From Planctomycetota bacterium (GTDB taxonomy: Bacteria; Planctomycetota; UBA8108; SXIK01), in contig OZ244999.1 of NCBI GenBank assembly GCA_965223265.1, forward strand, positions 1,152,001 through 1,216,000: a stretch of 64,000 nt of DNA. The letters run 5' to 3'. The position numbers and the translations under genes are program-made. The notes beneath the pieces were generated by a model, which saw nothing but the letters and a program-made list of their open reading frames with translations, was not told where the DNA came from and did no database searches. Shown in pieces: positions 3 through 18,600 of this stretch (positions are counted from its first letter, which is position 1; every line of letters begins with the position of its first letter).

Positions 3-644
3 GGGCTGTTCTTGCTCGTAACGATTCAGAGGTACCGCAAGCAGTCGTTCACGTACTCCAGTCTCTCCTCGCAGTTCCTGGAAAACCGTCACCACTTCTG
101 GGGTATGGTTCCGTTTCATTATGGCATCCTCGTGATCCTCGCTGGGCATGTCATTGCCTTTCTGATTCCTCGGCAGGTACTGCTTTGGAACCAGAACCCG
201 CTGCGCCTCTACGTTCTCGAGATCTCGGCGCTCATCTTCGGCCTTCTGTGCCTCGTCGGTTTGGTCAACGTCATCATCCGGCGCTTTACGAGCCCGAAGC
301 TCCGACAAGTGACGACGGTCTCCGATTGGATCATCTACGCCATGCTCCTCTTTCAGGTGTTCAGCGGTATCTACGTAGCAATCTTCGTAGGCTGGGGATC
401 ATCCTGGTTCGCTTCAACCCTGACCCCCTACCTGTGGTCGCTACTCAAGCTCAACCCGGACATCTCTTACGTCACCTCCATGCCTTGGTGGGTGAAGTTG
501 CACATCCTGTCGGCCTTTTCGCTGATTGCCTTTTTTCCGTTCACCCGACTGGTTCACATCCTCGTCATCCCCAACATGTACCTTTGGCGCCGGCCTCAGG
601 TCGTGCGCTGGAACTGGGACCGCGAAAGAAGAAGGGTGGACTGA
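3..644 (+). CDS. narI: Respiratory nitrate reductase gamma subunit (cytochrome b), 5'-partial
   Basis: The frame is open from the window edge. It carries NarI motifs: SSLSSQFLE, FHYGIL...GH, KLHIL...PFTRLVH (four heme-ligand His) and YLWRRPQVV, with several TM helices. Confidence 0.93.
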   Translation, partial: GLFLLVTIQRYRKQSFTYSSLSSQFLENRHHFWGMVPFHYGILVILAGHVIAFLIPRQVLLWNQNPLRLYVLEISALIFGLLCLVGLVNVIIRRFTSPKLRQVTTVSDWIIYAMLLFQVFSGIYVAIFVGWGSSWFASTLTPYLWSLLKLNPDISYVTSMPWWVKLHILSAFSLIAFFPFTRLVHILVIPNMYLWRRPQVVRWNWDRERRRVD

Positions 645-753
645 ATACGACTGTGGCCATGCGTGAAGACCTCACTTCCGCGGGAGACAAGCGGCCTGCC
701 GGGCCTGTCACGAACGGCTCGCGCAATACGCGAGCAACAAAAAAGGAAGGACC

Positions 754-2370
754 ATGGCACGATTAGAACGCTGGGAACCCGAAGACCCGCAGTTCTGGGA
801 GGATACGGGCAAGGCCACGGCCCGTCGCAACCTCTGGGTCTCGATCCCCAACTTGCTATTAGGCTTCGCTGTTTGGATCTACTGGGGGATGGTCGCCAAG
901 TACATTCAAAGACTCCACTTCGCGAGTGACGGTGAGCTTTTCAACTTCACCTTCATGAACGAAGGTCAACCCTTCGGCGACGACGGATACCGCGCTCTCT
1001 TGTTCACGCTACCGGCGGTGGCCGGCCTTGCCGGCGCAACCCTCCGGATTCCTAACTCGTTCATGATCGCGGTCTGCGGCGGGCGGAACGTGAAGTTCAC
1101 GACGACGCTGCTGCTGATCCTACCAGCCTTGGGCGCGGGGATCGCACTGCGCGATCACACGACGCCGTTTTACATCTTCATTCTCCTCGCTGCGCTCTCC
1201 GGCGTCGGCGGCGGCGCGTTCGCCTCCTCCATGTCCAACATCAGCTTCTTTTACCCCAAGCGGATGCAGGGGCTCGCGCTGGGCCTGAACGCGGGACTCG
1301 GAAACCTCGGCGTCAGCGTGATGCAGTTCCTGATTCCGTGGGTGATCACGTTTGGCCTCTTCGGGGCGTTGGGGGGAGAGCCCTATGAGACGATGAAGGA
1401 CGGCGAGACCTCGCAGCTCTGGATCCAGAATGCCGGTTTGGTCTGGGTGCCCATTCTCCTGACGTGTGCGATCCTGGCGTTCTTCTGCATGAACAACCTG
1501 CCTTTCCACAAGTGCGGACCGACGCCCATCGCCGTCTCGAAGTTCCTCTGGCTGACCGTGCTCGGATACCTCGGCGCAGGCGTCGGTATCTTCTTGCTCA
1601 TCATCCCCTGGGGCGGATTTCCGATGCTCCTGAAGACTTTCCTCGTCGTCGTCGTCGCCGTCGTCGTCACGCTGTCAGCCATGCGCTACCTCACTCCGAC
1701 CGAGACGAGGAAGAACCTCCATGACCAGTTCGGCATCTTCAAGGAGAAGCACAACTGGGTCATGACCTGGCTCTACGTCATGACTTTTGGTTCTTTCATC
1801 GGTTATGCCAACGCCTTTCCAAAACTCATCGATGACGTCTTCGGCGTCTACCGGGTCGGAGCGCGCGCGGGCGAGCTGACGGGACTTTCCAGCGCCGGCT
1901 ACATCTATATTGGAGCAGGCGTGGGTGCTCTGATCCGTCCGCTGGGCGGCTGGCTCTCGGACAAGCTAGGCGGCGCCCGGGTGACGCACTGGGATACGAT
2001 CATCATGATTGCGGCGACCATCGGCGCGGGCTACTTCTGTGCCATCGCGATGGAGTCCGAAACACCACAGCAGTATTTCACTCCTTTCCTGCTCACGTTC
2101 ATCGTGCTGTTCGCAACCACCGGCATCGGCAACGGTTCGACATTCCGCATGATCGGCGTGATCTTCCAAAAGGATCAGCGCGGACCGGTGCTCGGGTGGA
2201 CGTCGGCCATCGCAGCCTACGGCGCCTACCTCATTCCGAAGATCTTTGCGACGCAGATCAAGGCCGGGACGCCCCAGTACGCGCTGTACGGTTTTGCGGG
2301 CTACTATCTGTCGTGCCTCTTGGTGAACTGGTGGTTCTACGCTCGAAAGAACGCAGAGATCGAATGTTAG
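754..2370 (+). CDS. narK: NarK-family (NarK2-like) nitrate/nitrite MFS transporter
   Basis: N-terminus WEPEDPQFWE...ARRNLWVSIP, GATLRIP, nitrate signature GLNAGLGNLG, RPLGGWLSD and GIGNGSTF. RBS AGGAAGG lies upstream. Confidence 0.93.
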   Translation: MARLERWEPEDPQFWEDTGKATARRNLWVSIPNLLLGFAVWIYWGMVAKYIQRLHFASDGELFNFTFMNEGQPFGDDGYRALLFTLPAVAGLAGATLRIPNSFMIAVCGGRNVKFTTTLLLILPALGAGIALRDHTTPFYIFILLAALSGVGGGAFASSMSNISFFYPKRMQGLALGLNAGLGNLGVSVMQFLIPWVITFGLFGALGGEPYETMKDGETSQLWIQNAGLVWVPILLTCAILAFFCMNNLPFHKCGPTPIAVSKFLWLTVLGYLGAGVGIFLLIIPWGGFPMLLKTFLVVVVAVVVTLSAMRYLTPTETRKNLHDQFGIFKEKHNWVMTWLYVMTFGSFIGYANAFPKLIDDVFGVYRVGARAGELTGLSSAGYIYIGAGVGALIRPLGGWLSDKLGGARVTHWDTIIMIAATIGAGYFCAIAMESETPQQYFTPFLLTFIVLFATTGIGNGSTFRMIGVIFQKDQRGPVLGWTSAIAAYGAYLIPKIFATQIKAGTPQYALYGFAGYYLSCLLVNWWFYARKNAEIEC

Positions 2371-2387
2371 CCTCTCCTGGAAGCCCG

Positions 2388-3062
2388 ATGTGGAAACGAA
2401 CGATCTCCGTAGTCCTGGGGATCAGTCTCGTTCTCGTTCTCGTGTCCGTGTTCGGACTCGTGGGGGAGGTCCACCTTCCAGGCAACCACGTGGGATACTC
2501 GCCGGCGCAGCCCATCGCCTACTCCCACCGGCTGCACGCGGGGGAGCTCGGAATCCCCTGCCTCTACTGCCACTTCGGCGCCGAGAAGAGTCGGCACGCT
2601 GGGGTCCCCTCAGCGGACATCTGCATGAACTGTCACAAATTCGTGACCGCGCCACTGGTGGAGGTGCGCGACGAGGAGAAACGCGCAACTCAGGAGAAGC
2701 GCCCAACCGTGCCAGTCGTGTCCAGTGAGATCCGAAAGATCTACGACGCTTTGGGGCTCGACGACAACCGCCAGCCCGACCCCACCAAAACGCCGACGCC
2801 CATCGCCTGGACCCAAGTCCACCGCTTACCAGATTACGTTTACTTCGACCACCGACCGCACGTCCATGCGGGTGTCGCCTGTCAGACCTGCCACGGACCG
2901 GTCGAGCAGATGGAGAAAGTGTACCAGGTCGAAACCCTCTCCATGGGCTGGTGCGTCCACTGCCACCGCAGTGAAAAACCAACCGGCCAACAGGTAGTAC
3001 GGTCGGGCACATCAGAGATACCGAAGCACGTTTCGACCGACTGCGCAGCGTGCCACTACTGA
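2388..3062 (+). CDS. actA: Alternative complex III pentaheme cytochrome c subunit ActA
   Basis: N-terminal TM helix, QPIAYSHRLHAG, five CxxCH motifs (CLYCH, CMNCH, CQTCH, CVHCH, CAACH), LPDYVYFDHRPH and LSMGWC. An alternative start is at 2364. Confidence 0.9.
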   Translation: MWKRTISVVLGISLVLVLVSVFGLVGEVHLPGNHVGYSPAQPIAYSHRLHAGELGIPCLYCHFGAEKSRHAGVPSADICMNCHKFVTAPLVEVRDEEKRATQEKRPTVPVVSSEIRKIYDALGLDDNRQPDPTKTPTPIAWTQVHRLPDYVYFDHRPHVHAGVACQTCHGPVEQMEKVYQVETLSMGWCVHCHRSEKPTGQQVVRSGTSEIPKHVSTDCAACHY

Positions 3063-3076
3063 GTCAGGGTCATTTC

Positions 3077-6000
3077 ATGGCTTCGAACGCGGACGGCAAA
3101 GAGTATTGGAAGGCGCTCCACGAGCACGAGCGGGTGGACGTGCTAAGGGAGGATCTCGGGAATGAGTTTCCTCGCGGTCTCGTCGGCGACGCCGACTCCA
3201 CCGGGAAGCCCGCATCACCGGATGTGAAGCGTCGAGACTTCTTGAAGCTTTGTGGTTTCTCTTTGGGTGGTGCAACCATCGCGGGCTGCACGCGCGGCAA
3301 GGAGGAGAAACTCATCCCCTTCCTCATCAAGCCCGAAGAGGTGACGCCGGGCCGGGCGACGTGGTACAGCACCTCCTGTGGCGGCTGCCCCGCTGGTTGT
3401 GGTGTCCTCGCTAAGAACCGCGACGGGCGCCCCATCAAATTGGAAGGGCATCCGCAACACCCGCTCAACCGTGGTGGGCTCTGCGCTACAGGGCAGGCCT
3501 GCCTACTGGGTCTCTACGACTCGCGCCGCTTGAAACGACCTCGTGCCGACGGAGCCGATGCGAGCTGGCCGGAGGTGGATCGTCTCATTCGCCAAGAGTT
3601 GACGCGGATACGTTCCGAGGGCGGCAAGGTGCGCTTTTTGACCGAGACGCTCAACAGTCCGACGCTCACGGCGTCCATCGACGCGTTCCTTGCAACGTTC
3701 GAGGACGCCCGTCGAGTCGAATACGACCCAGTGTCCACCTCCGCTCTCCTTGATGCCCACGCAGAAGCGTACGGAGCTCGAGTCCTGCCGAGACTCCACT
3801 TCGAACGTGCCAAAGTGATCGTCAGCTTCGACGCCGACTTTCTCGGCACATGGATTTCACCTGTTGAGTTCACGGCTGGCTACCAGGATGGTCGCCAGCT
3901 TGAGGGCGAGAGCTCCACGTTCTCCTATCACGTGCAGGTGGAATCGCGCCTCTCCCTGACCGGTAGCAACGCGGACCATCGCCTCGTGATCCGCCCCGCT
4001 GATCAGACACTGATCATGGCGCACCTGGCGGAGCGGTTGGCGAAGAAAGCTGCAGTAGACTCTCCCTGGACGGCTCTCGACGCGGCGCCGATCGCCGCTT
4101 CAGAATTGGATGCTCTGGCCGACCGTCTCTGGGGGGCCCCGCGAGGCGAGACTCTTGTCGTCTGCGGAACGGACGACTTGGAAGCGCAGCGGCTCACAAT
4201 CTTCCTCAACAACATCCTAGGAAACGACCGCCCGGACGGCGGCGGATCTGTCGACCTGACGCGACCATCATTTCAGCGCCAAGGCAGCGACCGCGACCTC
4301 AGCGCACTCATCGAAGAGATGCGCTCGGGAGAGGTAACGGCGCTCTTCGTGGACAGCGTTGACCCCGTCTACGATCTTCCCGCAGTCGCGGGATTCACCG
4401 AGGCGCTGAAGCAGGTGCGTTTCGTCGTTAGTTTCGCAGAGCGTATGAACGATACGGCCGCAGTGGCGCGTTACGTCTGTCCCCGTCACGACGCCTTCGA
4501 GTCGTGGCGAGATGCCGAGCCGATCGCCGGCGTGCTCACGGTCGGCCAACCGCTCATCGCGCCGCTGGGTGATACGCGCTCCGTCGTCGAGAGTTTGGCC
4601 ATCTGGCAGGAGAAGGGCGCCGATCATCTTCAGATCCAGCGAGACGTCTGGCGTCAGAAGGTGTTTCCGCGACAGCAAGACGAGAACGACTTCGACGCTT
4701 TTTGGGATCGGTCCGTCCACGACGGCTTCGCGGTGGTCTCCGCTGGCGTCGCCGGTGAACTCTCCACGTATCGAAAACCACCGCTGAGGCGCCCTACGCC
4801 GACCCCATCGGAGCAAGCAATGCTGGAGCTGGTCCTCTACTCGAAAGTGAGCCTCGGTGACGGGCGTCACGCCTACAACCCTTGGCTCCAGGAGCTCCCC
4901 GATCCGATCAGCAAGGTGACTTGGGATAACTACGCTTCGCTCGCCCCGCGGACGGCTGCCGAACTCGGGCTGCAGACAGGTGACGTCGTCCGTGTCGGCG
5001 ATGGAAAAGCCTCGATTGATGTGCCAGTCCTGCTGCAACCAGGACAGCACCCCTCGACGGTCGCAGTCGCGCTCGGCTATGGCCATAGGGGCAGTGAACG
5101 CTTCGCGGACATTGGGCCTGAGTGGATTCACAAGCGGCCGACGATTTCGACAGGGGAGCGAGTCGGCCGCAATGCTGCCGCACTCATCCGGCTTGCAGAT
5201 GGGCGTCGGCGCTACAGCGCGTCGCCCGTTTCCATAGAGAAGACCTCTGGGGGGCATTCTCTGGCCACTACCCAGTCGCACCACTCCCTGAGCGTCCCCG
5301 CGCATCTCGCCGGTACGCATGAAGGTCCGCGTCCGATCGTTCAGGAGACAACCCTCGAAGCGTACCGGAAGGATCCAAGCTCTGGTTCCCACAAGCACCA
5401 CGAGCTCCTGTCAATCTGGAGCGAGGACCATCGATACGACGGGCACCACTGGGGGATGGCAATCGACCTCAGCCGGTGTACGGGCTGCAGTGCATGCGTG
5501 CTCGGCTGCCAGGCGGAGAACAATATCCCCGTCGTGGGTAAGGACGAAGTCCTGCGAGAGCGTGAGATGAGCTGGCTTCGCATCGATCGCTACTACAGCG
5601 GCGACGACGATATCGAGGTTGTCCACCAACCCATGATGTGTCAGCACTGCGACAACGCACCGTGCGAAAACGTGTGCCCTGTGTTGGCCACAGTGCACAG
5701 CTCTGAAGGCCTCAATCAGCAGGTCTACAATCGCTGTGTCGGCACGCGCTACTGCGCCAACAACTGCCCCTACAAGACACGACGTTTCAACTGGTTCGAT
5801 TACCCCCGGGAGGACTCAGTTGAGAACATGGTGCTCAATCCGGACGTCACTGTCCGATCGCGGGGCATCATGGAGAAATGCTCGTTTTGTGTCCAGCGCA
5901 TCCAAGAAGCCAAGGCTGAAGCGAAACGAACTGGACGTTCACTCCGCGATGGGGATGTCCAGCCTGCTTGCCAGCAGTCCTGCCCGAGCAAGGCGATCGT

Positions 6001-6160
6001 TTTCGGCGACCGCAATGACCCCAAGAGTGAGATCTCGAGAAGGATGAAGGACCCGCGGCACTTCCGTGTCCTCGAGGAATTGAACGTACTGCCTTCCGTC
6101 GGGTATCTCACCTCCGTCAAGAACCGCGCTCCGAAGGAGGGAGACGAGCACCATGGCTAG
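3077..6160 (+). CDS. actB: Alternative complex III ActB (Tat lipoprotein; molybdopterin-oxidoreductase-like domain fused to an Fe-S domain)
   Basis: YWKAL N-terminus, Tat motif KRRDFLK followed by [23 protein letters not shown]-terminal Cys clusters [35 protein letters not shown] and CSFC...CQQSC. Confidence 0.93.
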
Positions 6161-7526
6161 CGTCACTTCACCCCTCCGACAACCGCTCGTCAGCGGCGAT
6201 AAGGACTGCGCACAGGTCACGATAGACGTTTGCAGCCCTCTGGAACGGAAACCAACCCGGCTGTGGTACATCGCTTTCGCGGTCGCCTTGGCGCTGCTTC
6301 TTATCGGCGTGATCGCCGTGGCCTATCAGATCGCCGTTGGCATCGGGACCTGGGGGCTGAACAAGACGGTGGGCTGGGCGTTCGACATCACGAACTTTGT
6401 GTTTTGGATCGGCATCGGTCACGCGGGAACGCTGATTTCGGCGATCCTTTTTCTCTTTCGCCAGCGCTGGCGCACCGCGGTGAACCGATCGGCCGAGGCG
6501 ATGACGATCTTCGCCGTCATGTGTGCGGGGATCTTTCCTTTGATCCACATGGGTCGCCCTTGGCTGGCCTATTGGGTCCTACCCTATCCGAACACGCGTG
6601 GTCCCCTGTGGGTCAACTTCCGCTCCGCTCTTCTGTGGGATGTATTCGCTATCAGTACGTATTTTCTTATCTCTCTCGTCTTCTGGTATCTCGGTCTCGT
6701 GCCCGACTTCGCTACTCTGCGCGACCGCGCCAAAACAAAAATCCGCCGCGCCCTCTTCGGCTTCTTTAGTCTCGGTTGGAACGGCTCCAACAGAACGTGG
6801 CGGCACTACGAGATCGTTTACCTTTTGCTTGCCGGCCTGGCTACTCCCCTTGTGCTATCCGTCCACACGATCGTCAGTTTCGATTTCGCGACGTCGGTGA
6901 TTCCTGGCTGGCACACGACGATTCTACCGCCGTACTTCGTGGCCGGAGCGATCTTCAGCGGCATGTCCATGGTCTTAACTCTGATGCTCATCGCCCGAAA
7001 GGTCATGAACTTTGAAGACTACATCACGACGAACCACATCGACGCGATGTGCAAGCTCGTGCTCGCGACGGGAGGGATGGTCGCTTTAGCCTACGGCACT
7101 GAGTTCTTTATCGCGCTCTACTCGGGCAACCAGTACGAACGCTTTGCGTTCGTCAACCGAGCGATGGGCCCCTTCGCGTGGGCCTACTGGATTATGGTGA
7201 GCTGCAACGTCCTCGTGCCGCAGCTCTTTTGGTCACGGAGGATTCGCAGAAGTGTGGGCCTCGTCTTCATCCTCGCACTTCTCGTCAACGTCGGCATGTG
7301 GTTTGAGCGCTTCGTCATCATAGTGATCTCACTCCATCGCGATTTCCTGCCTTCGAGCTGGGCGGACTACACGCCGACTTCGATCGAGATCGCTACTCTG
7401 GCCGGCAGCTTCGGCCTTTTCTTCACCTGCTTTCTGATCTTCTGCCGCTTCCTGCCGATGATCGCCATCGGCGAGGTAAAAGGTGTACTCAGCTACGCCC
7501 GTGCAAAGAGAGAACGTCACCGATGA
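6153..7526 (+). CDS. actC: Alternative complex III ActC (NrfD/PsrC-family quinol-binding membrane subunit)
   Basis: [52 protein letters not shown] and GMWFERF. It overlaps the actB stop. Confidence 0.95.
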
Positions 7527-8050
7527 AAGCCAACGGATCACGTCACTGGATCGCCGCTTTCGCGTCCGAGGAGGACATCCTGGGCGTTACCAACACCTCA
7601 CGTCAGCGAGGCTACAGAATCGTCGATGTCTACACTCCGTACGCGGTGCACGGGCTCGACGACGCCATGGGCCTGAAGCGATCGCGGATCACCTGGGTGT
7701 GTTTCTTTGCCGGCCTGGCCGGAGCCGTCGGGATGCTCTGGCTGGGCACGTGGACCCTGGCGGTGGACTGGCCCACGAACATCGGCGGCAAACCGTTCAA
7801 CTCGCTTCCAGCGATCATCCCCGTTGTCTTCGAAGTAACCGTCCTGCTCGCCGGCTTTGGCAGCGTGTTCGCTCTGCTGATCTGCTGCCGCCTCTTTCCC
7901 GGCAAGCAGGCAACGCTGCCTGCGCCCGGTGTGACGGACGACCGGTTCGTCCTCGTCTTGGAGGAGACAGACTCATCCGTCGATCCGCGTGACGTCGAAG
8001 ATCTCTTCGAGGAGTACGGAGCCGTCGAAGTCGAGACTCGCTACGAGTAG
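7523..8050 (+). CDS. actD: Alternative complex III ActD (DUF3341)
   Basis: [32 protein letters not shown] and TDDRF, with two TM helices. ATGA overlap with actC. Confidence 0.92.
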
Positions 8051-8057
8051 AGATACC

Positions 8058-8630
8058 ATGAAACTCGGCAAACTGAACGTGACGCTTATCGCCTTTCTCT
8101 GCGTCGGCGTGGGCGTCCACCTGAGTGTTCGTCCAGACGCGAGCCGGAGAAACTTCGAGTTCTTGCCGGAAATGGTAGAGTCAGTGCCCTTCGACGCCCA
8201 GGGGCCGAACGACAACTTTCTGGATGGCAAGAATCTACGTTCCCCCGTTCCTGGAACGATCGCGCGTGGTTACCTGCCTCTACGCTACGCCCCGACTCCA
8301 GAGGATGCCCTGCGCGCGGGCAAGGAGCTGGTGAACCCCTTTGATTCTGCGGACGAGGCAGCGCTGGCGCGCGGCGCGTTCGTCTACCAAAACTTCTGTC
8401 AGGTTTGTCACGACTCCGCCGGACTCGGTAAGGGAGTCCTCAGCACGCGTGGAGTTCCGCCGCCGCCGTCGCTTAAGGCCGAGCGTGCGCTGGCAATGAA
8501 AGACGGTCAGATGTTCCACGTCCTCAGCTTCGGACAGGGCAACATGGGTTCCTACGCCTCCCAGCTGGACCGAGATGATCGGTGGAAAACCATTCTTTAC
8601 GTGCGTTCGCTACAGAAGAAAGAACCATGA
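8058..8630 (+). CDS. actE: Alternative complex III monoheme cytochrome c ActE
   Basis: PVPGTIARG, NPF, a single CQVCH, DGQMFHVLSFGQGNMGSYASQL..DDRW. Positioned between actD and actF. Confidence 0.88.
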   Translation: MKLGKLNVTLIAFLCVGVGVHLSVRPDASRRNFEFLPEMVESVPFDAQGPNDNFLDGKNLRSPVPGTIARGYLPLRYAPTPEDALRAGKELVNPFDSADEAALARGAFVYQNFCQVCHDSAGLGKGVLSTRGVPPPPSLKAERALAMKDGQMFHVLSFGQGNMGSYASQLDRDDRWKTILYVRSLQKKEP

Positions 8631-9823
8631 AGGAACAGAAGCGCAGCGTGCCAGCACAACTGCCGCGGGTCGAGCTTCGGAGAGATTGGGGCATCACCCT
8701 CGGGGTGCTCGTCGGCCTCGGCGCCGTGGCCGTCCTCGTCGGCCTAGCCATCGACCCGCAGCGAGCCGGAGGCAACTTTCTCCTGTCACTATTCTTCCTT
8801 CTCGGTCTAGGCCTCGCCGGGCTCCTGTTTATCGCGCTTGTCGCAATCTCGAGTGGATCCTGGGCCGTCGTCCTGCGTCGCATTCCCGAGGCGATGGCCG
8901 CAACTCTTCCGGTCTGCATGGTCCTGTCGATCGGGCTCTTCGCGCTGATCCCTTTTCTCTACGAATGGAGTCATGCCGAAGCGGTGGCAAGTGACGAGCT
9001 CCTTGCACACAAGAGCGCGTGGCTAAACACTACGTCCTTCATCGTCCGGACACTCATCTGCAGTGCACTGTGGTTGCTGTTCGCTCATCTCTTGGTCGGA
9101 CGATCGCGCCGACGGGATATCGAATCGAGCGCGAGCGAGGGAGGTGTGAGCATCGGCCTACCTGCGCTCTTTGTTGTGCTGTTTGCGATCACCTTTTCAG
9201 TGGTCAGCTTCGATTGGGTCATGTCGCTCGAGCCTCACTGGTTCAGCACGATCTTTGCCGTCTACAACTTCGCGGGGCTGTTTCTCAGCGGTCTTGCCGC
9301 GATCACATTGCTCGTCATTGTGCTGCGGAGGCTGGGGCCGCTGCGGGATCTTGTCACTGTGGACCATCTGCACGATCTCGCCAAACTCTTATTGGGGTTC
9401 AGCGTCTTCTGGGCATACATCTGGTTCAGCCAGTTCATGCTGATCTGGTACGGTAACATTCCCGAGGAGAGTTCCTATTTCCACTTGCGACAACGAGGGA
9501 GTTGGGAGGTCCTCTTCGTCCTCAACATCTTCGTCAACTGGATCATTCCGTTCCTGGTCCTTCTGCCGAGGACGTCGAAACGCAATGAGACCGTTCTCCT
9601 CAACGTCTGTCTCCTCCTCATCGCTGGGCGATGGCTGGACCTCTACTTGATGGTCCTGCCACCGCTGGTAGGCGATGAACCGAAATTCGGCTTCTACGAG
9701 GCGCTGCCTTTCGCTGGAGCGGTCGCGCTCTTTCTTCTGGTCGCCTTCCGTTCGCTTGGGAAGTTCAACATCATCCCGGTGAGGGATCCTCTGTTGGAGG
9801 AGAGCTTGCACCACCACCAGTGA
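8627..9823 (+). CDS. actF: Alternative complex III membrane subunit ActF
   Basis: RRIPEA, YEWSH, DWVMSLEPHWFSTIF, HLHDLAKLL, WAYIWFSQFMLIWYGNIPEE and DPLLEESLHHH. ATGA overlap with actE. Confidence 0.93.
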   Translation: MKEQKRSVPAQLPRVELRRDWGITLGVLVGLGAVAVLVGLAIDPQRAGGNFLLSLFFLLGLGLAGLLFIALVAISSGSWAVVLRRIPEAMAATLPVCMVLSIGLFALIPFLYEWSHAEAVASDELLAHKSAWLNTTSFIVRTLICSALWLLFAHLLVGRSRRRDIESSASEGGVSIGLPALFVVLFAITFSVVSFDWVMSLEPHWFSTIFAVYNFAGLFLSGLAAITLLVIVLRRLGPLRDLVTVDHLHDLAKLLLGFSVFWAYIWFSQFMLIWYGNIPEESSYFHLRQRGSWEVLFVLNIFVNWIIPFLVLLPRTSKRNETVLLNVCLLLIAGRWLDLYLMVLPPLVGDEPKFGFYEALPFAGAVALFLLVAFRSLGKFNIIPVRDPLLEESLHHHQ

Positions 9824-10214
9824 CGTTCCGTCCGATCGAGAAGAGCCAAGAGATCGTTGGCGCGCTGCCGTTCGAGAAACCGAGTCACTGGAACGGGCGC
9901 CTCCAACCATACGACACTTGTCTCGTGCAAGCGAAGGAAGGTGTGCCACTGCGGCCGAGCCGCGCATACCGCAGTATGCGGACACAACTCTCTGGGGCGA
10001 CCACAGTTGCGCTATCGCCTTGCGAAGCACCGCCGCTCCGAGTACGCACCAGCACGCCGAGGCCTCGGATTCGGCGGCCATTCTCATTTCCACAAGGCAA
10101 TTCGTCGCAATGCGTTACAACCTGACATGCTTTGCGAGTCCGAGCGGCACGGCGTTTCCTTGAGAGACTGCGGGCGGACGAGTATGCAAAGGAACGCCGG
10201 CGCGGAGGACATCG

Positions 10215-11996
10215 ATGGAAGTCCGTAACAAGGCAACGAGTATTGATCTGTTCACGTTGAGGACGCCCCAAATGCGGGCGTTCCATATGAGTTGGTTCGC
10301 CTTCTTCCTTTGCTTCTTCGCGTGGTTTGGCATCGCGCCCTTGATGGCGGTCGTGAGGGAAGAGCTGGCTCTCACGAAGCAGCAGATCGGCAATACGATC
10401 ATCGCGTCCGTGGCGATCACGATTTTGGCGCGTCTGCTCATCGGCTGGCTTTGTGACCGCGTTGGTCCGCGGCTCAGCTACACTCTTCTGCTCGTCTTCG
10501 GGTCGCTGCCCGTCATGGGCATCGGCCTGTCACAAGACTACACGACATTCCTGCTGTTTCGGCTCGGCATCGGCACCATCGGCGCGTCTTTCGTCATCAC
10601 GCAGTATCACACGTCGGTGATGTTCGCCCCGAACGTCGTTGGAACGGCCAATGCGACGTCCGCCGGCTGGGGCAACCTGGGAGGTGGCGTCACGCAGATG
10701 GTGATGCCACTCGTCATGGCAGCGTTCCTCGCGATGGGGCTGAGTGACGCCGCGAGCTGGCGTGCGGCGATGGTTGTCGCGGGAGCGGTCTGCCTCGTGA
10801 CTGGCGTTGGGTACTGGTTCTTTACTACCGACCTGCCAGACGGGAACTTCAAGGAGCTGCGGGCCAAAGGCGAGTTAGCGACCGTCGCGAAGACGAAAGG
10901 CACCTTCTGGTCGGCGGTCAAGGACTACCGAGTCTGGGCCCTCTTCGTCATCTATGCTGCTTGTTTTGGCATCGAGCTCACGATTAACAACATCGCCGCG
11001 ATCTACTACAAGGACTACTTCGGCCTTGGTCTCAAGACTGCTGGGCTCGTCGCCGGACTCTTCGGCCTGATGAACATTTTCGCGCGGACACTCGGTGGGT
11101 ACATCAGCGATCGTTTTGTGCGCAACGGTGGTCTTCGGGGTCGTGTCCGCTGGCTCTTTATTGCCCTTCTCGTTGAGGGGGTTGCGCTCGTGATCTTCTC
11201 GCGGATGACGGTGATTGCCCTAGCCGTTCCGTCCATGATTCTCTTCAGCCTCTTCGTTCAGATGTCGGAGGGCGCCACGTATTCGGTCGTCCCCTTCATC
11301 AACAAGAAAGCCCTTGGTGCGGTGGCCGGCATCGTCGGCGCCGGTGGCAACATGGGTGCCGTCTGCGCCGGGTTCCTCTTTCGGGCGGAGAACATCTCTT
11401 ATCCCCAGGCTCTACTGATCTTGGGGTGCTGCGTCACCGTCTGCGCCTTCTGCACGTTTCTCGTGCGCTTCAGTCCCGCTCAAGAGGAAGTCGCCGCCAA
11501 AGAGTTCGCTCATGCCATGGCGAGGCGCCGAGTCGAACGGAGGGAGCGTGTGCCCCTGGGTGAACTCATACCGGGTATCCGACACATCCGACCGATGGAC
11601 GCTCTGCGGATCTATCTCGGCATCGCTTTGATGATCAAAGGGATCTACTACATCATGAACATGTCGGAGCTCGAGGCTTCGCTGAGTGAAGGACTGGGTC
11701 TCGGGCAGCAGATGATTGCCTGGTCGGTCGTGTTTGCGCACGTCATCGCCGGTGCAAGTCTCGCGCTGGGGTTCGTGACTCGAATGGCTGCCGGGGCGAA
11801 CGCCATCGTCATGGCGGGCGCTGTCGTGGTCAGCCTGACTGGCGCCGAAGGAAGCCTGTGGGGATCGAACCTGAGCTTTCAATTCACGCTGCTCATCCTG
11901 TTCTCGCTGGTGCTGCTGGTCTGGCGAGGGTCCGGACCCTTCTCACTCGATCACCTGCTGCGCATCGACGAGGAGAAGGAGCCGGAAGTCTTCTGA
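10215..11996 (+). CDS. NRT2/NasA/NarK1-like nitrate MFS transporter with a C-terminal DoxX-family domain
   Basis: MRAFHMSWFAFF, AGWGNLGGG, FARTLGGYISD, EGATYSVVPF and GAGGN. From about 11595 a DoxX-like part follows: LRIYLG...KG...AG..LALGFVTR.AA...GSGPFSLD. RBS GGAGG. Confidence 0.88.
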   Translation: MEVRNKATSIDLFTLRTPQMRAFHMSWFAFFLCFFAWFGIAPLMAVVREELALTKQQIGNTIIASVAITILARLLIGWLCDRVGPRLSYTLLLVFGSLPVMGIGLSQDYTTFLLFRLGIGTIGASFVITQYHTSVMFAPNVVGTANATSAGWGNLGGGVTQMVMPLVMAAFLAMGLSDAASWRAAMVVAGAVCLVTGVGYWFFTTDLPDGNFKELRAKGELATVAKTKGTFWSAVKDYRVWALFVIYAACFGIELTINNIAAIYYKDYFGLGLKTAGLVAGLFGLMNIFARTLGGYISDRFVRNGGLRGRVRWLFIALLVEGVALVIFSRMTVIALAVPSMILFSLFVQMSEGATYSVVPFINKKALGAVAGIVGAGGNMGAVCAGFLFRAENISYPQALLILGCCVTVCAFCTFLVRFSPAQEEVAAKEFAHAMARRRVERRERVPLGELIPGIRHIRPMDALRIYLGIALMIKGIYYIMNMSELEASLSEGLGLGQQMIAWSVVFAHVIAGASLALGFVTRMAAGANAIVMAGAVVVSLTGAEGSLWGSNLSFQFTLLILFSLVLLVWRGSGPFSLDHLLRIDEEKEPEVF

Positions 11997-12407: not shown

Positions 12408-14831
12408 CTACCGACAACTGTCCTGCGGCGTCTCGCACCCAAGACTTTCGTCGGAGTCGAGCGCGCTCTGGCCACACAGCGGAAACGGCGCGACGGGCGG
12501 TGGCCCAGCCGCGAAATTGTGCATGAGCATGTACACCGCGTCGTGCGTCTGCCCTTCGACTCGTCCGTCGCCGTTGGCGTCACAGGCCGCGAGGCACGGG
12601 GGGCTTTGGCCGCCGGAAAAGTTGTAGCGCAGCAGAAAGATAGCGTCGGTCACGGCGCCTGTAGCCACGCCGTCGCCGTTGCAATCGCCACGCAGCAAGA
12701 GGGGAACACGACGCAGCCGAAAGATCACACCTCCATCGCGGGGGCCCGAGGACACCGTCGTGCCATAGAAGCTTCCGTCGGAAGCTTCCATGAGCGCGGC
12801 AGCGGGATTGCTCCCGTCCGGTCCGCTGAAGGAGTGGAGAGTCGTCAGCTCGCCTGCTGCTGTCAGCTGAAAGGCGGTGCCGCGGGAGCTGGCGCCGCCC
12901 TCCATGGTGGTGCCGTAGAGGTTTCCGTCGGAGGCTTCGACGAGCGCGGCAGCGGGATTGCTCCCGTCCGGTCCGCTGAAGGAGTGGAGAGTCGTCAGCT
13001 CGCCCGACGGCGTCAACCTGAACACGGTGCCCGGACCGTTTGCACCGCCGAAGCGAGTCGTGCCGTAGAAGTTCCCGTCGGAAGCCTCGATGAGCGCGGC
13101 CTCAGGCCTTCTTCCGTCAGGCCCCTGGAAGGAGTGGAGAGTCGTCAGCTCGCCCGACGGCGTCAACCTGAAGACGGTTCCCGGGCCGTTTGCGCCGCCG
13201 TGCGTGGTCGTGCCGTAGAAGTTCCCGTCTGAAGCCTCAACCAAGCCCTCGGGAAACATCCCGTTCGGTCCGCTGAAGGAGTGGAGAGTCGTCAGCTCGC
13301 CTGCCGGTGTGAGCTTAAAGACCGTGCCCCGGCCGGCTTCGCCGCCGTGCGTGGTCGTGCCGTAGAAGTTTCCGTCTGAAGCCTCAACCAAGCCCCCGGG
13401 AAACATCCCGTCCGGTCCGCTGAAGGAGTGGAGAGTCGCGAGCTCGCCCGACGGCGTCAACCTGAAGACGGTGCCCGGGCCGCTTGCGCCGCCGAAGCGA
13501 GTCGTGCCGTAGAAGTTCCCGTCGGAAGCCTCGATGAGCGCGGTCTCGGGCCTTCTTCCGTCAGGCCCCTGGAAGGAGTGGAGAGTCGTCAGCTCGCCCG
13601 ACGGCGTCAACCTGAAGACGGTTCCCGGGCCGTTTGCGCCGCCGAAGCGAGTCGTGCCGTAGAAGTTCCCGTCGGAAGCTTCGACGAGCGCCGCTCTGGG
13701 CTCGCTTCCTTTAGGTCCGTCGAAAAAGTGGAGCGTCGTTAGCTCGCCCGCTGGCGTCAGCTTGAAAACGGTCCCTGGGCGGTCTGCAAGGAGTCCCGAA
13801 GTCGTGCCGTAGAAATTTCCGTCGGAAGCCTCGATGAGCGTGGCCTCGGGCCCGCTTCCGTCAGGTCCCCCGAAGGAGTGGAGGGTCGTCACCTTTCCTG
13901 ACGGTGTCAGTTTGAAGGCGGTTCCCAGGTTGGCTGTACCGCCTCTCCAGTTCGTGCCGTAGAAGTTCCCGTCGGAGGCTTCGATGAGGGCGGCCCGAGG
14001 AGAACTCCCTCCAGGTCCCCGGAAATCGTGAAACGTTGTGAGCCTTCCCGCCGGCGTGAGCTTGAAAACGATGCCGCAGCAGTCCTCTTCGTCGGCTGTG
14101 CCGTAGAGGTTTCCATCCGAGGCTTCGATGAGTGCGGCTCGGGGGGCCATCCCCCTGAAGGAGTGGAGAGTCGTGAGCTCGCCCGCCGGTGTGAGCTTGA
14201 AGACGGTTCCCCGGCTGATTTCTCCCTCGCTGTCACTGGTTGTGCCGTAGAAGTTTCCGTCCGAAGCTTCAATGAGCGCGGCTTCAGGAAACTCTCCGTC
14301 AGGTCCGCTGAAGGAGTGGAGGGTGGTGAGGTCTCCCGCTGGAGTGAGTTTGTACACAGTTCCCAGCTCGAATGCTCCGCCTCTCGCGGTTGTGCCGTAG
14401 AAGTTTCCGTCTGAAGCTTCGATGAGCGCGGCGCGCGGTATGGCGCCGTCGAGTCCTTCGAAGGCGTGGAGAGTCGTCAACTCCCCCGCCCGCGTCAGTT
14501 TGAAGACAGTGCCCGAGGTCGTGCCGTAGAAATTTCCGTCGGAAGCTTCTACGAGAGCGGCCAGGGCGCCCCCTCCATCAGCCGAGCTGAAGGAGTGGAG
14601 CGTTGTCAGTTCGCCCGCTGGCGTGAGTTTGAACACGGTGCTAGGGGCGCCACCTGTTCGTCGCGAGGTCGTGCCGTAGAAGTTTCCATCGGAAGCCTCG
14701 ATGAGTGAGCTCGGCTGACCCGGGAGCGGTTCAAAACCGTGCAGGACTTCGGAGGCCAGTTCTCCGCGGGCGCTGCGGATGAACGCCACGACCACGAAAG
14801 TTAGCACGACCGTTTGTTTCAGATTGTTCAT
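12408..14831 (-). CDS. Secreted GloVer-type (Gloeo/Verruco) tandem-repeat beta-propeller protein with a C-terminal dockerin-like domain
   Basis: Signal peptide and 14 repeats of L[IV]EASDGNFYGTT...GTVF[KR]LTP.GELTTLHSF. The tail reads RGDCNGDG...DAIFLL...CDANGDG...PFPLCG. Confidence 0.85.
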   Translation of the reverse strand: MNNLKQTVVLTFVVVAFIRSARGELASEVLHGFEPLPGQPSSLIEASDGNFYGTTSRRTGGAPSTVFKLTPAGELTTLHSFSSADGGGALAALVEASDGNFYGTTSGTVFKLTRAGELTTLHAFEGLDGAIPRAALIEASDGNFYGTTARGGAFELGTVYKLTPAGDLTTLHSFSGPDGEFPEAALIEASDGNFYGTTSDSEGEISRGTVFKLTPAGELTTLHSFRGMAPRAALIEASDGNLYGTADEEDCCGIVFKLTPAGRLTTFHDFRGPGGSSPRAALIEASDGNFYGTNWRGGTANLGTAFKLTPSGKVTTLHSFGGPDGSGPEATLIEASDGNFYGTTSGLLADRPGTVFKLTPAGELTTLHFFDGPKGSEPRAALVEASDGNFYGTTRFGGANGPGTVFRLTPSGELTTLHSFQGPDGRRPETALIEASDGNFYGTTRFGGASGPGTVFRLTPSGELATLHSFSGPDGMFPGGLVEASDGNFYGTTTHGGEAGRGTVFKLTPAGELTTLHSFSGPNGMFPEGLVEASDGNFYGTTTHGGANGPGTVFRLTPSGELTTLHSFQGPDGRRPEAALIEASDGNFYGTTRFGGANGPGTVFRLTPSGELTTLHSFSGPDGSNPAAALVEASDGNLYGTTMEGGASSRGTAFQLTAAGELTTLHSFSGPDGSNPAAALMEASDGSFYGTTVSSGPRDGGVIFRLRRVPLLLRGDCNGDGVATGAVTDAIFLLRYNFSGGQSPPCLAACDANGDGRVEGQTHDAVYMLMHNFAAGPPPVAPFPLCGQSALDSDESLGCETPQDSCR
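12740..14710 (-). repeat. Intragenic tandem repeats of about 150 bp, several nearly identical at nucleotide level
   Basis: For example, about 13080-13200 and about 13524-13644 differ at only a couple of positions. Confidence 0.85.
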
Positions 14832-15005: not shown

Positions 15006-15659
15006 ATGGCTGCGGATTCCGCCAACATGGACGACAGCGAAACGAAAGAGATGGTTAGGCTCGGAGCCCAAGGGGACGAGCGTGCCTTGGACGACCTCTT
15101 CTCGCGTCATCGCGACAGGCTCCGCCGTATGTTGCGCGTGCGTCTTGACCCCCGGGTGCGCGTTCGCATCGACGTCTCCGACGTCATCCAGGAGGTCTAC
15201 CTGGAGGCGTCACGACGTCTCCCTAAGTACAACGACAGTCCCACGGTGCCGTTTTTCGTGTGGCTGCGCTCCATCGTCGGACAGAAGTTGGTCGACCTAC
15301 ACCGCTTCCACTTAGGTGCGAAAGCGAGGGATGCGCGCCGTGAAGTGAGGTTCCGCCGGTGGCCCATGCCGGCGGCGACTTCTGCCGTTCTTGCTGCCGA
15401 GCTACTCGGCGTTCTTTCGACCCCGAGCGAGAAGGCGATGCAGGGCGAGCTGGAGAATCGCTTGCGTGAGGCGTTGGAGAGCATGGACGCGAAGTTGCGC
15501 GAGGTACTCGTTCTGCGCCACTTCGAAGGTTTGAGTAACGGCGAGGTTGCCCATGAGCTGGAGGTCCCGGTTTCGACTGCTAGCCAGCGTTACATCCAGG
15601 CGCTGAAGAAGCTGCGTAGTGTGCTGGCCGATATGCCCGGGGGGTTGGAAGCGTTGTGA
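15006..15659 (+). CDS. ECF RNA polymerase sigma-70 factor (planctomycete, kinase-associated type)
   Basis: GDERALDDLFSRHRDRLRRM, DVSDVIQE, STPS and VLVLRHFEGLSNGEVA. GTGA overlap with the kinase gene. Confidence 0.9.
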   Translation: MAADSANMDDSETKEMVRLGAQGDERALDDLFSRHRDRLRRMLRVRLDPRVRVRIDVSDVIQEVYLEASRRLPKYNDSPTVPFFVWLRSIVGQKLVDLHRFHLGAKARDARREVRFRRWPMPAATSAVLAAELLGVLSTPSEKAMQGELENRLREALESMDAKLREVLVLRHFEGLSNGEVAHELEVPVSTASQRYIQALKKLRSVLADMPGGLEAL

Positions 15660-18600
15660 AGAATACGGAGTGGGTGGATCACAGCGAAAGGAATCCCGTC
15701 GAGGAGTTCGCGGAGTCCTTCGTCGCTCGCTATCGCCGTGGCGAGGAGCCGCGCATCTCTGAATACACCGAAAAGTACCCTGAGCACGCGGCGGAGATCC
15801 GTGAGCTCTTTCCCGCGTTGCCTCTCGTCGAGAGACTCGGCGCGCAGGACAACGAGTCGTCTGCGAACGTCTGCGAAGAGGTCGCCACCGCATCGGCGAG
15901 TGCGCAAAAGGCACTGCCGCGCCAACTTGGCGAGTACGTGATCCTTCGCGAGGTGGGCCGCGGCGGGATGGGTGTCGTCTACGAAGCCGAACAAAAATCG
16001 CTCGGGCGGCGTGTGGCACTGAAAGTGCTGCCGTTTCACCGTCTCATGGATGATCGACGCTTGGAACGCTTTCAGCGCGAGGCGCGCGCTGCGGCAGCGC
16101 TGCAGCATCCGAACATCGTCCCGGTCTTCGGTGTCGGCGAAGAGGAAGGCGTCCACTACTACACGATGCAGTTCATCCCGGGGCAGAGCCTCGACGAGGT
16201 GCTGAATGAGCTGAGAGTCCTCCGCAACTCCGACGGTTTTCCAAGTGGGGCGACGGATCAGAGGCGAGGCAACCAAGGGCCGGGACCCAGCACCATTAGC
16301 CTCTTGCACGAATTGTTGATGCCAAGCGAAGAAGGCAGCGACGGAGCCGTCCCGGCCCCGAGCCCTGGCGGCAAGTCGAGATCTTTGTCTTCCAACACTC
16401 TTCTGGAGAGCACCTCGGACGGTAGCGATCTGAAGTACTTTCGCAACGTTGCGACCTTGGGAGTGCACATCGCCGAGGCGCTCGACTACGCCCATGGCGA
16501 GGGAGTGATTCACCGCGACATTAAGCCGTCGAACTTGCTCCTGGAGCCGGCCGGTCAGGTGTGGGTGACTGACTTTGGGCTCGCCAAGTCGGCCGAGAGC
16601 GACGCAGTGACACTCAGCGGCGAGGTCGTCGGCACGCTCGCTTACATGGCGCCGGAGCGCCTCGAAGGTTGGTCGGACCCGCGCAGCGATCTCTACAGCC
16701 TCGGCGTCACGCTCTACGAGCTGCTTACTCTGCGAGCGGCATTTGAGGACAGCGACCGTGGCCGGTTGATGAAGCGAATTAGCGAAGAGGAACCGAAGGC
16801 GCCGCGCCTTCTGGAGCCACGCCTGCCGCGCGACCTGGAGACGGTGGTCCTCAAGGCGATGGAGAAGGAGCCCGCGCGGCGCTACCGCAATATGGAGGAG
16901 CTTGCGGGCGATCTCAATCGCTACTTACGGAGCGAACCGCTGCGGGCGCGGCGTCCGAGCGTCGTCGATCGTCTCACCAAGTGGTCGCGGCGACACCAAC
17001 GAGCGGTGTTGGCGGCCCTCCTCATTTTGGTCCTCGCGTTTGTCGGACTGATCTTCTCGAGCTACCGAATCACGCAGGAACAAACGCTTACGGAGAAGGC
17101 GCTCACGGAGCGCAGCACGGCGCTGACGGAATCGCAGAGACAAGCCTATGTCGCCAACGTTTCGCGGGCGGGAATGCACTTCCACCTCGCCGACCCCTCG
17201 TCAGCGCGTGAAAGTCTCGACAGGTGTCCACCAGAGCTCCGCGGCTGGGAGTGGCGCCACCTCGACGCACGGACAAAGGCCAACTTCAACCTCTTGCACA
17301 CGATCAACATTGGTCACCGTCGCATCCGCGAGCCAAACTTCTCCGCGAGGGGAAATCGCCTCGTGGCGTTGATCGACGACGTGGTGAAGGTTTGGGACGT
17401 CCAGAGCGGCGAGCTTCTCTTATCGCTCGACGACCACAAGCAGAGGGCGACGCAGCTCGCGTTCAGTCCCGAAGGCTCACGGTTTGTTAGCTGGACGCGA
17501 GAAAAACTACGGCTCTGGCGCATTGAGGACGGCGATCTGCTCGCGAACGCAACCAGTCGACTCCATTCCTGGAACAACTTGCCACTCCGTTACAGTCCGA
17601 ACGGCGAACTCGTCGCGATGGGCGGCCCGGGAGGTGAGATTCAGCTCTGGCGCCCGGAGAGCGGACAGGACGTTACGACCTTCATCGAGCGTCGCCCGAC
17701 TCAGGGCGAGTTGCATTGGAGTTTTACCTTCACTCCTGACAGCCGGCGCCTGGTGATCGCGTTCGGCTGGGATGATGGGAAGTCGCTCAACGAGCTAACC
17801 ATAACCGGACTCACTGTGGAGGTCTGGGAGGTCGAAACGAGGAAGCGTCTCTCGACCCTCACTATCCCACGTGGATTTATCAAGAAGATCGCGTTCGACA
17901 GCGACGCACGCCGCGTTGCCGTTGTCGGAGACCAGAGCATCCAGGTGTGGGCTGCAAGGACGGGGACACTCCTTGCGCAGTGGCGTTACGCGCACCGGGT
18001 GACGTCCCTCGCGTTCAGTCCAGACGGTCGACTGCTCTCGGGGGCTTGCGTCGATCGGAAGGTGCCGCTCTGGAACTCGCGATCGGGCGAACTTCTGGCG
18101 ACTCTCAGCGGGCACGTGAGACTGTCTCGGACTGTGGCGTTTCATCCCAATGAACCGCTACTGGTCAGTGGCTCCGACGATGGTGCCCTGAAGCTGTGGG
18201 ACATCGAGTACGCCGACGTCGTGCCGGCGCTGCGCGGCCACCAAGGGAGGGTGGACTCGGTCACGTTCAGCCCGGACGGACTTCTCCTGGCGAGCTGTGA
18301 CCACAGTGGCGTCGTCAGAATCTGGGATGCGCAGACGGGCGATCCAGTGCAGTCCTGTCGCGGCCACGTAGGTGTTGTCCGGTCGGTCGCGTTCAGTCCC
18401 GACGGCACCATCCTGGCCAGCGGCGGTGGCGACACAACAGTGAGGCTCTGGCAGCCTCAGACTGGGGAGCTACTCGCGACGCTTCGGGGGCATGACGAAA
18501 CCGTGTGGTCCGTCGTTTTCGATCCGCTTGGTCGCCGCCTGCTCACCTCTTCCGGCGACGAATCGATCCGTCTCTGGGAGGTACCCAGCGGCCAGCCGTT

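Follow-up and report, generated by a model that had tools for sequence, protein, structure and literature searches.

The 64,000-nt stretch of planctomycete DNA analysed here (positions 1,152,001–1,216,000 of contig OZ244999.1; hereafter the window) opens with the respiratory nitrate reductase (Nar) gene narI and runs on into the genes for an alternative complex III (ACIII); with the DNA upstream of the window included, the cluster reads narCGHJI-narK-actABCDEF-narK. By homology, the six act genes encode a complete, bona fide ACIII, and a nitrate-associated ACIII lineage of this kind is found over several phyla. We posit that this ACIII relays menaquinol electrons via the dihaem cytochrome NarC and via NarI to nitrate, which appears to be the best explanation of the cluster, even if we put its chances at somewhat short of even.

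All six core subunits, ActA to ActF, are present in the conserved order. ActC (E 4e-187), ActB (6e-179), ActF (3e-68), ActA (1e-48) and ActE (3e-21) match the subunits of solved ACIIIs, and ActD was recognised via Pfam (Table 1). The five CXXCH haem motifs of ActA and the single one of ActE are invariant in alignments. ActE starts with a hydrophobic helix and has no clear lipobox, as is the case, by eye, in most nar-linked ActEs; canonical ActE is a lipoprotein. ActB carries a twin-arginine translocation (Tat) signal and a lipobox (Cys71), and its C-terminal part contains 15 Cys which fit three 4Fe-4S clusters and one 3Fe-4S cluster and are invariant in 32/32 nar-linked copies. An FS0 motif, C-x2-C-x3-C-x27-C (C101, C104, C108, C136), lies in its Mo-enzyme-like domain; each of these Cys recurs in 28–30 of the 32 nar-linked copies, and the motif is absent from the ActB of Rhodothermus marinus and Flavobacterium johnsoniae (6F0K, 6BTM) but is also found in some non-nar ActBs. 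ActB of an ACIII lacks the Mo-bisPGD cofactor. Here the segment where the Mo ligand would be expected, a position set by eye, has no conserved Cys, yet FS0 is kept, unlike in 6F0K and 6BTM. ActC holds equivalents of R. marinus His139, Asp169 and Asp253 (quinol site) and of the gate residue Arg395 when aligned to 6F0K_C, residues which are named in the accessible part of PMC8076601. This is the only ACIII in the host genome (G000; 9.18 Mb on one contig, 91.65% complete), and no caa3/cbb3 oxidase genes adjoin it, the oxidases lying ~3.9 and ~4.1 Mb away.

An earlier note on this DNA had proposed retrieving narGHJ from upstream; these genes were found there together with narC, which lies outside the window that the note had covered and is the most likely link between Nar and ACIII. 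NarG and NarH pass their curated cut-offs (TIGR01580, 1492 against 1084; TIGR01660, 646 against 524), and NarG has retained its FS0 motif and Asp ligand and shows no Tat signal, indicating the cytoplasmic respiratory type. Its nearest plasmid matches are from Thermus (62%), the other matches among those listed being below 49%, and it clusters with Thermus in a 27-row tree whose references comprise Thermus, Bacillus, Paracoccus and Tistrella only, with no Nitrobacter-type NxrA. NarC, which is membrane-anchored and encoded first in the operon, is 31% identical to Thermus NarC (E 7e-18), and its two CXXCH motifs and two Met are all invariant in the alignment; a structure model (predicted local distance difference test, pLDDT, 86.5) had no match in the PDB at E ≤ 0.001.

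The ORF (open reading frame) list and family scans bear out the earlier description of narI, narK, actABCDEF and a second nitrate transporter on one strand, with gaps of 109 bp (narI-narK), 17 bp (narK-actA), 14 bp (actA-actB), 7 bp (actD-actE) and 391 bp (actF-second narK), and overlaps of 8 bp (actB/actC), 4 bp (actC/actD) and 4 bp (actE/actF). The gene list, read by eye, likewise agrees that no oxidase or SCO gene comes next after the cluster; the 391-bp gap holds no ORF of ≥80 aa with a nameable match, actG not having been profile-searched. In the relative G001 the corresponding place is occupied by a 302-aa gene that by eye looks like an amidohydrolase (L039:8790-9698). Read support, whose lack the earlier note had counted as refuting, was obtained from short-read contigs (run X1), which bridge narI-narK, narK-actA-actB and actC-actF-second narK with zero differences and also bridge the regulator-narC-narG and narH-narJ-narI junctions. 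Because the short-read runs possibly derive from the source sample, and none of their pieces covers the entire stretch, misassembly is argued against more strongly by conservation of the cluster in other genomes.

Such conservation is extensive, and the narI-narK-actA synteny is not unique to this contig. Locus searches with ActB and ActC returned 80 GTDB and 80 metagenome loci, to which ten loci of relatives were added for the counts; since both searches were queried with G000 proteins, other nar-linked ACIII lineages could be missed. At ≥68% ActC identity there are 41 distinct loci, of which 24 have nar or narK upstream, 16 have too little upstream DNA and one is nap-linked, compared with 0/98 nar-linked loci below 64% identity (57 of them with enough upstream DNA). 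Named nar-linked loci come from Planctomycetota, Bacteroidota/Ignavibacteria, Acidobacteriota, Hydrogenedentota, Hinthialibacterota and Marinimicrobia. An even sample of the planctomycete's own phylum, 401 genomes, yielded 55 NarI matches including G000 and one weak match, leaving 53 other genomes to be counted. All 53 have ActC, and in 40 of them actC lies 3.7–7.4 kb downstream on the same strand; NarC was found in 52/53 and in every one of the 40 linked genomes. Among the 13 unlinked genomes several resemble contig breaks, with ActC at 69–78% (contig ends were not checked for each). In the ActC tree all 33 nar-linked rows fall within one 43-row branch that covers several phyla (SH-aLRT, Shimodaira–Hasegawa-like approximate likelihood ratio test, 94; FastTree 100 for the matching 57-row branch). 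The FastTree run left out L097, L060 and L086 (duplicates), L128 (outlier) and low-identity short-context rows; the SH-aLRT tree dispensed with four long branches, with the short-context rows (L080 was kept) and with a randomly drawn part of the non-nar rows; neither contains a solved-structure ACIII sequence. NarI and ActC distances covary across 29 loci (Mantel r 0.75, 0/2000 permutations), kin among them not being independent.

The association persists where the nitrate reductase itself is missing. Six loci carry a NarI-like gene immediately before actA with narGH absent, and a NarC-like dihaem gene stands in front in four of them (L171, L258, L278, L279), none being recognised in L220 and L282. 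Four of the six are one family on one branch (L220 is not in the tree), thus the set represents at least two origins. Gene order at these loci ties ACIII genetically to NarC/NarI. The NarI-like copy of L258 is split into frames of 117 and 157 aa.

Regulatory motifs are shared within the cluster as well. The perfect palindrome GCATAC-N4-GTATGC occurs twice in the 9.18-Mb genome (0.06 expected), both times in the nar-act cluster: one copy precedes narC and the other the second narK. The interval from narC to actF and the oxidase loci of G000 are free of it even when one mismatch is allowed, and G001 has only two near-perfect copies, in the same two places. Across 33 loci it precedes narC in 22 at ≤2 mismatches, as against 0/33 coding controls and 1% of shuffles, and in most cases a sigma-54-like GGCAC element comes next. 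An initial, strict pattern for sigma-54 matched little; a relaxed pattern, written after the upstream sequences had been inspected, matched 21/33 upstream versus 1/33 coding regions, and the element at the G000 narC promoter is a variant that it misses. The sigma-70 promoter and terminator scans were at chance (1 versus 2.5 and 9 versus 10.4), and in four further genomes the other palindrome sites are mostly coding and overall no more numerous than in a reversed control. A further near-perfect copy is intergenic and located downstream of a Rieske-cytochrome b-octahaem operon, at L307:9927 (G293:C24:29927). G000 encodes a protein which, by its motif, we take to be RpoN. We infer a single narC-to-actF transcript of ~16.6 kb under the adjacent sigma-54 regulator, and the cluster would be induced by nitrate or low oxygen. 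The second transporter, preceded by an enhancer motif and a promoter motif of its own, probably forms a transcription unit by itself under the same regulator, and hence act, which had been described as embedded in the nar cluster, has nitrate genes on both sides instead of lying inside a single message.

In the proposed relay, electrons would pass from menaquinol through ActC/ActB to ActA/ActE, then to NarC and NarI and through NarH/NarG to nitrate, nar and ACIII likely being co-expressed from a sigma-54 promoter. Contact of ActA/ActE with NarC, flow in this direction and extra charge translocation are all inferred; a complex prediction of ActA and ActE with NarC (score 0.01, mark 0.32) is evidence neither way. 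NarI likely still oxidises quinol directly, and therefore passage through ACIII would be an additional entry of higher yield rather than the sole one, competing with direct oxidation at NarI. By analogy, the ACIII-Nar pair would work like an ACIII-oxidase pair with Nar in the oxidase's place. The gap between the potentials of menaquinone (~-74 mV) and of nitrate/nitrite (~+420 mV) could cover charge translocation at ACIII as well as at NarI, provided that the haems are tuned. A more ambitious form of this relay, which we hold only tentatively, would be a widespread ACIII-NarC-NarGHI supercomplex with a sigma-54 regulator, an extra FS0 and more charge moved per nitrate, menaquinol electrons going out through ACIII and coming back via NarC/NarI. 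It would be the nitrate counterpart of the ACIII-oxidase supercomplex, with NarC/NarI as a detachable adaptor that persists without narGH.

A number of observations weigh against the relay. The NarC haems are likely His/Met-ligated, so that by their expected potentials entry into NarI would be uphill unless tuned. NarI retains all four haem His and has an Arg aligned with E. coli Lys86, as in Thermus, and this pattern is identical in act-linked, unlinked and Thermus copies; a degraded quinol site specific to act-linked NarI was looked for and none was found, hence NarI bears no mark of having lost direct quinol oxidation. In all six NarI-like copies without narGH the proximal haem has lost its His56-equivalent ligand and the distal-haem His pair is kept; with this ligand gone, such a module cannot easily send electrons across the membrane, and it also fits an outward or a structural role. 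In at least four genomes Nar and ACIII are genuinely apart: the only ACIII seen in G300 and G382 is caa3-linked, and in G350 and G281 act lies elsewhere, away from narGH. Nar with NarC thus occurs without a nar-type ACIII, and the coupling is not obligatory. The ActC branch contains not only all nar-linked copies, as the earlier note had asked, but also nap-linked and nos-linked ones, one oxidase-linked, two unlinked and five NarI-only copies; it is therefore enriched for nar rather than restricted to it, and of the note's 'nitrate-dedicated' ACIII what stands is a nar-associated lineage. Finally, the accessible text of PMC7694296 takes Thermus NarC to carry electrons outward, to Nir/Nor, and G000 has possible ACIII sinks of its own in a cbb3-like oxidase and in MtrC-like and HAO-like proteins, haem-copper-family enzymes (NO reductases not separated from oxidases) being present in 40/40 linked genomes.

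Several of these points fit an alternative that we consider possible, if less probable than the relay, in which ACIII is a co-regulated low-oxygen/nitrate complex III parallel to Nar, and ACIII and NarC pass quinol electrons outward into a periplasmic cytochrome pool and through it to whichever sink the host has, be it a cbb3 oxidase, NrfA, an NO reductase or HAO-like or MtrC-like cytochromes. The outward role of Thermus NarC, the sinks of G000, haem-copper enzymes in 40/40 linked genomes and NrfA in 17/40 would suit it, as would the NarI-like copies lacking the proximal-haem ligand, two Marinimicrobia loci with cox genes downstream, and sister ACIIIs with a 7-haem ActE that adjoin napA-like and nosZ genes. 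It nevertheless leaves unexplained why act stays right behind nar across phyla, the palindrome in G000 and G001 marks only narC and the second narK, and no N-oxide sink is common to the linked genomes. Besides NrfA, NirS was found in two of the 40, NosZ in one and NirK in none, and 22/40 have none of the four; owing to this patchiness Nar is the sole N-oxide reductase shown in all 40. In G000, NrfA, NirS, NirK, NosZ, NorB and a bd oxidase were not found, NrfA giving only short, weak PF02335 matches outside act and ActA no NrfA match. The earlier suggestion that ACIII feeds nitrite, NO or N2O reduction is weakened by these absences in G000 and in 22 of the linked genomes. Moreover, cytochrome b occurs in 39/40 linked genomes, which means that oxygen respiration usually has another complex III, of the Rieske/cytochrome b kind, available.

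G000 is itself such a case. The proposed search for another complex III revealed no second ACIII but three Rieske/cytochrome b loci, one beside an aa3-type oxidase and one with an HAO-like octahaem protein. At the first (G000:C1:5047876-5055205, L143) Rieske/cytochrome b genes and a 1548-aa 8-haem cytochrome lie just upstream of the aa3-type oxidase genes. The second (G000:C1:5730623-5733879, L144) is a Rieske-cytochrome b-octahaem operon, HAO/HDH-like with matches below cut-off, possibly for an enzyme that acts on nitrite or hydroxylamine and has a complex III to itself; an octahaem protein 44% identical to that of L144 follows actF in L059. A multihaem cluster at G000:C1:4833053-4843582 (L290) encodes an OmcA/MtrC-family decahaem protein above cut-off and may serve extracellular electron transfer. 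In all, 23 ORFs of G000 have ≥4 haem motifs.

An ACIII running in reverse, like QrcABCD, a direction that the earlier note had allowed for, would carry electrons from periplasmic cytochromes or another low-potential donor to menaquinone, with NarI reoxidising the quinol in a redox loop. This we regard as improbable. It would need no downstream acceptor, the quinol-site residues of NarI look intact and the FS0 motif of ActB could be a low-potential entry point; the motif is, however, shared with some non-nar ActBs, no donor enzyme is recognised in the cluster or conserved near it, and the six subunits match forward-working ACIIIs, with the NCBIfam Qrc models far below cut-off. That nar and act are neighbours merely through having hitchhiked together on a transferred island, without being linked in function, is more doubtful still: the patchy spread over phyla suggests transfer, and nar and act are separated in some lineages, but the order is kept, with the 17-bp spacing here, over deep divergences in several phyla, and act retains NarC/NarI-like genes as neighbours even without narGH.

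Two further readings are, in our view, very unlikely. Suarez et al. (2023) raised the possibility that the six genes form a novel membrane-bound nitrite reductase, which the adjacency of act to nar and the 22 linked genomes without NirS, NirK, NosZ and NrfA might favour; against this, the subunits are all homologous to those of ACIII, the five CXXCH motifs of ActA are ordinary ones and it has no NrfA match, and ActB has no conserved Cys in its presumed Mo-ligand segment (position by eye). Nitrite oxidation by a cytoplasmic NarG/Nxr-type enzyme, with ACIII carrying reverse electron flow, is suggested by a similar cluster with a NarC homologue in Nitrobacter (accessible text of PMC7694296) and by one act locus labelled Nitrospiraceae (L062, without upstream DNA), and is weakened because RuBisCO and CdhC were not found in the 91.65% complete genome with controls working (an ATP-citrate-lyase search was run without a positive control) and because NarG is of the Thermus type, in the tree lacking Nitrobacter-type NxrA.

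Sister ACIIIs and flanking genes add context to the lineage. At L090:1076-18477 a sister ACIII with a 7-haem ActE of ~790 aa follows a Tat NapA-like enzyme (below cut-off), and at L080:3-11499 another with a 7-haem ActE of ~790 aa precedes a clade II nosZ; these two loci suggest that the ACIII lineage has been reused for several N-oxide reductases. By eye, moaA, moaC, moeA and mobA-like genes follow actF in two Bacteroidota/Ignavibacteria loci (L067, L081), and Rrf2, RIC and hemerythrin-like genes flank act in L058, L187, L064 and L151.

Table 1. Features of the nar-act cluster, its putative control elements and related narGH-free loci; positions are those of the window unless a genome or locus is named (window start = G000:C1:1152001).
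Feature	Position	Strand	Basis or remark
Histidine kinase and NtrC-like sigma-54 regulator	G000:C1:1141293-1144974		Upstream of narC
Perfect palindrome, other copy	G000:C1:1145003		264 bp before narC
narC, dihaem cytochrome	G000:C1:1145267-1146142		Homologue of Thermus NarC
narG	G000:C1:1146139-1149783		narG-narH-narJ together 1146139-1151907
narI	3-644, starts 96 bp before window	+	Family scan and ORF list
First NarK-family nitrate/nitrite transporter	754-2370	+	Family scans
actA, pentahaem c cytochrome with N-terminal membrane helix	2388-3062	+	6BTM_A, E 1e-48
actB	3077-6160	+	Tat signal, lipobox, Mo-enzyme-like domain, Fe-S Cys pattern
actC, NrfD-type quinol-binding subunit	6153-7526	+	Quinol-site/gate residues versus 6F0K_C
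actD	7523-8050	+	Pfam ActD, E 4e-54
actE, monohaem c	8058-8630	+	Alignments
actF	8627-9823	+	6F0K_F, E 3e-68
Perfect palindrome GCATAC-N4-GTATGC	9964-9979		251 bp before second narK; candidate enhancer
Sigma-54-like -24/-12 element CGGCACGGCGTTTCC	10145-10160	+	Before second transporter
Second NarK-family transporter, ending in a DoxX domain (residues 463-539)	10215-11996	+	Family scans
NarI-like gene and act, no narGH	L171:2475-11533; L220:4845-13647; L258 (G350:C3); L278 (G319:C1); L279 (G119:C34); L282 (G281:C32)		

Beyond the second narK, the window continues with genes that were named by eye: on the minus strand (12408-14831) an 807-aa secreted-looking protein in which 'EASDGNFYGTT' repeats recur many times and the C-terminus is dockerin-like, and on the plus strand (15006-19903) an ECF-like (extracytoplasmic function) sigma factor and, after it, a 1415-aa Ser/Thr kinase that has WD40-like repeats, a combination typical of planctomycetes. 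On the other side, an integrase-like transposase and ATPase pair (by eye) lies ~25 kb upstream of the regulator genes (G000:C1:1113361-1116056).

In textbook accounts NarGHI is a quinol oxidase complete in itself, and ACIII works together with oxidases or photosystems. The accessible part of PMC10100899 describes ActB as known exclusively from aerobic respiration. If ACIII does feed Nar, nitrate respiration in many uncultured members of the nar-linked phyla named above, the planctomycetes included, could conserve more energy than assumed, and the yields used in nitrogen-cycle models would be affected. It would also provide an oxygen-free setting in which ACIII proton translocation can be tested, and a role for NarC other than that of replacing complex III.

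Among known systems, the closest precedent is the arrangement reported by Suarez et al. (2023; PMC10732223), whose accessible text describes nar genes lying upstream of six clustered genes in 13 cases from marine subsea-tunnel metagenome-assembled genomes, the six encoding a 5-haem cytochrome, a 4Fe-4S/molybdopterin fusion, NrfD, actD, ccoP-like and ccoII-like proteins. By this description it is the same arrangement as here, and the earlier note's 'undescribed system' was thus an overstatement. The cluster was said there to match no described complex, and a nitrite reductase or a respiratory role was proposed; in that account, as far as accessible, the cluster as a whole is not identified as an ACIII, and NarC, a clade, a regulatory motif and the FS0 motif go unmentioned. 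The available parts of PMC3362086, PMC9270275, PMC8076601, PMC10100899, PMC9324843 and PMC13608581 do not mention the synteny. Accordingly, the searchable literature, to which subscription papers that may mention the synteny do not belong, yielded neither the ACIII identification nor the link to NarC, the regulon motif, the FS0 motif or the module without narGH.

All six subunits are homologous to those of the ACIIIs of F. johnsoniae (6BTM) and R. marinus (6F0K) and of the photosynthetic ACIIIs 6LOD and 8K9E. The quinol-site and gate residues and the 15-Cys Fe-S pattern of 6BTM and 6F0K are kept; unlike those complexes, ours has no oxidase genes after act, an FS0 motif in ActB and an ActE with a membrane helix and no clear lipobox, and the ActA chain of 6BTM is longer (444 aa) than the five-haem ActA here. 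QrcABCD, the menaquinone reductase of sulfate reducers, has a related architecture and gives partial NCBIfam matches to QrcA, B and C, but the scores (63/180, 131/440 and 227/400) are below cut-off, and ActD, E and F are present here.

Haloarchaeal pNar (NarB/NarC), which faces outward, and Streptomyces Nar1 resemble the present case in being a nitrate reductase dependent on, or encoded with, a complex III, and differ in using Rieske/cytochrome b complexes rather than ACIII. According to the accessible texts, S. coelicolor Nar1 requires the bcc-aa3 supercomplex, the genes not being described there as one operon (PMC7931247), and haloarchaeal nar operons carry a Rieske/cytochrome b pair (PMC2483277). 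The Thermus thermophilus narCGHJIKT locus, encoding a NarCGHI heterotetramer in which NarC binds NarI (PMC7694296, accessible part), has the same gene order as here, with NarG 62%, NarI 39% and NarC 31% identical. It carries no act genes in the 15.6 kb compared, and has Dnr/Drp regulators where a sigma-54 pair is found here. In Thermus NarC is thought to replace complex III, whereas in the cluster described here a complex III is added.

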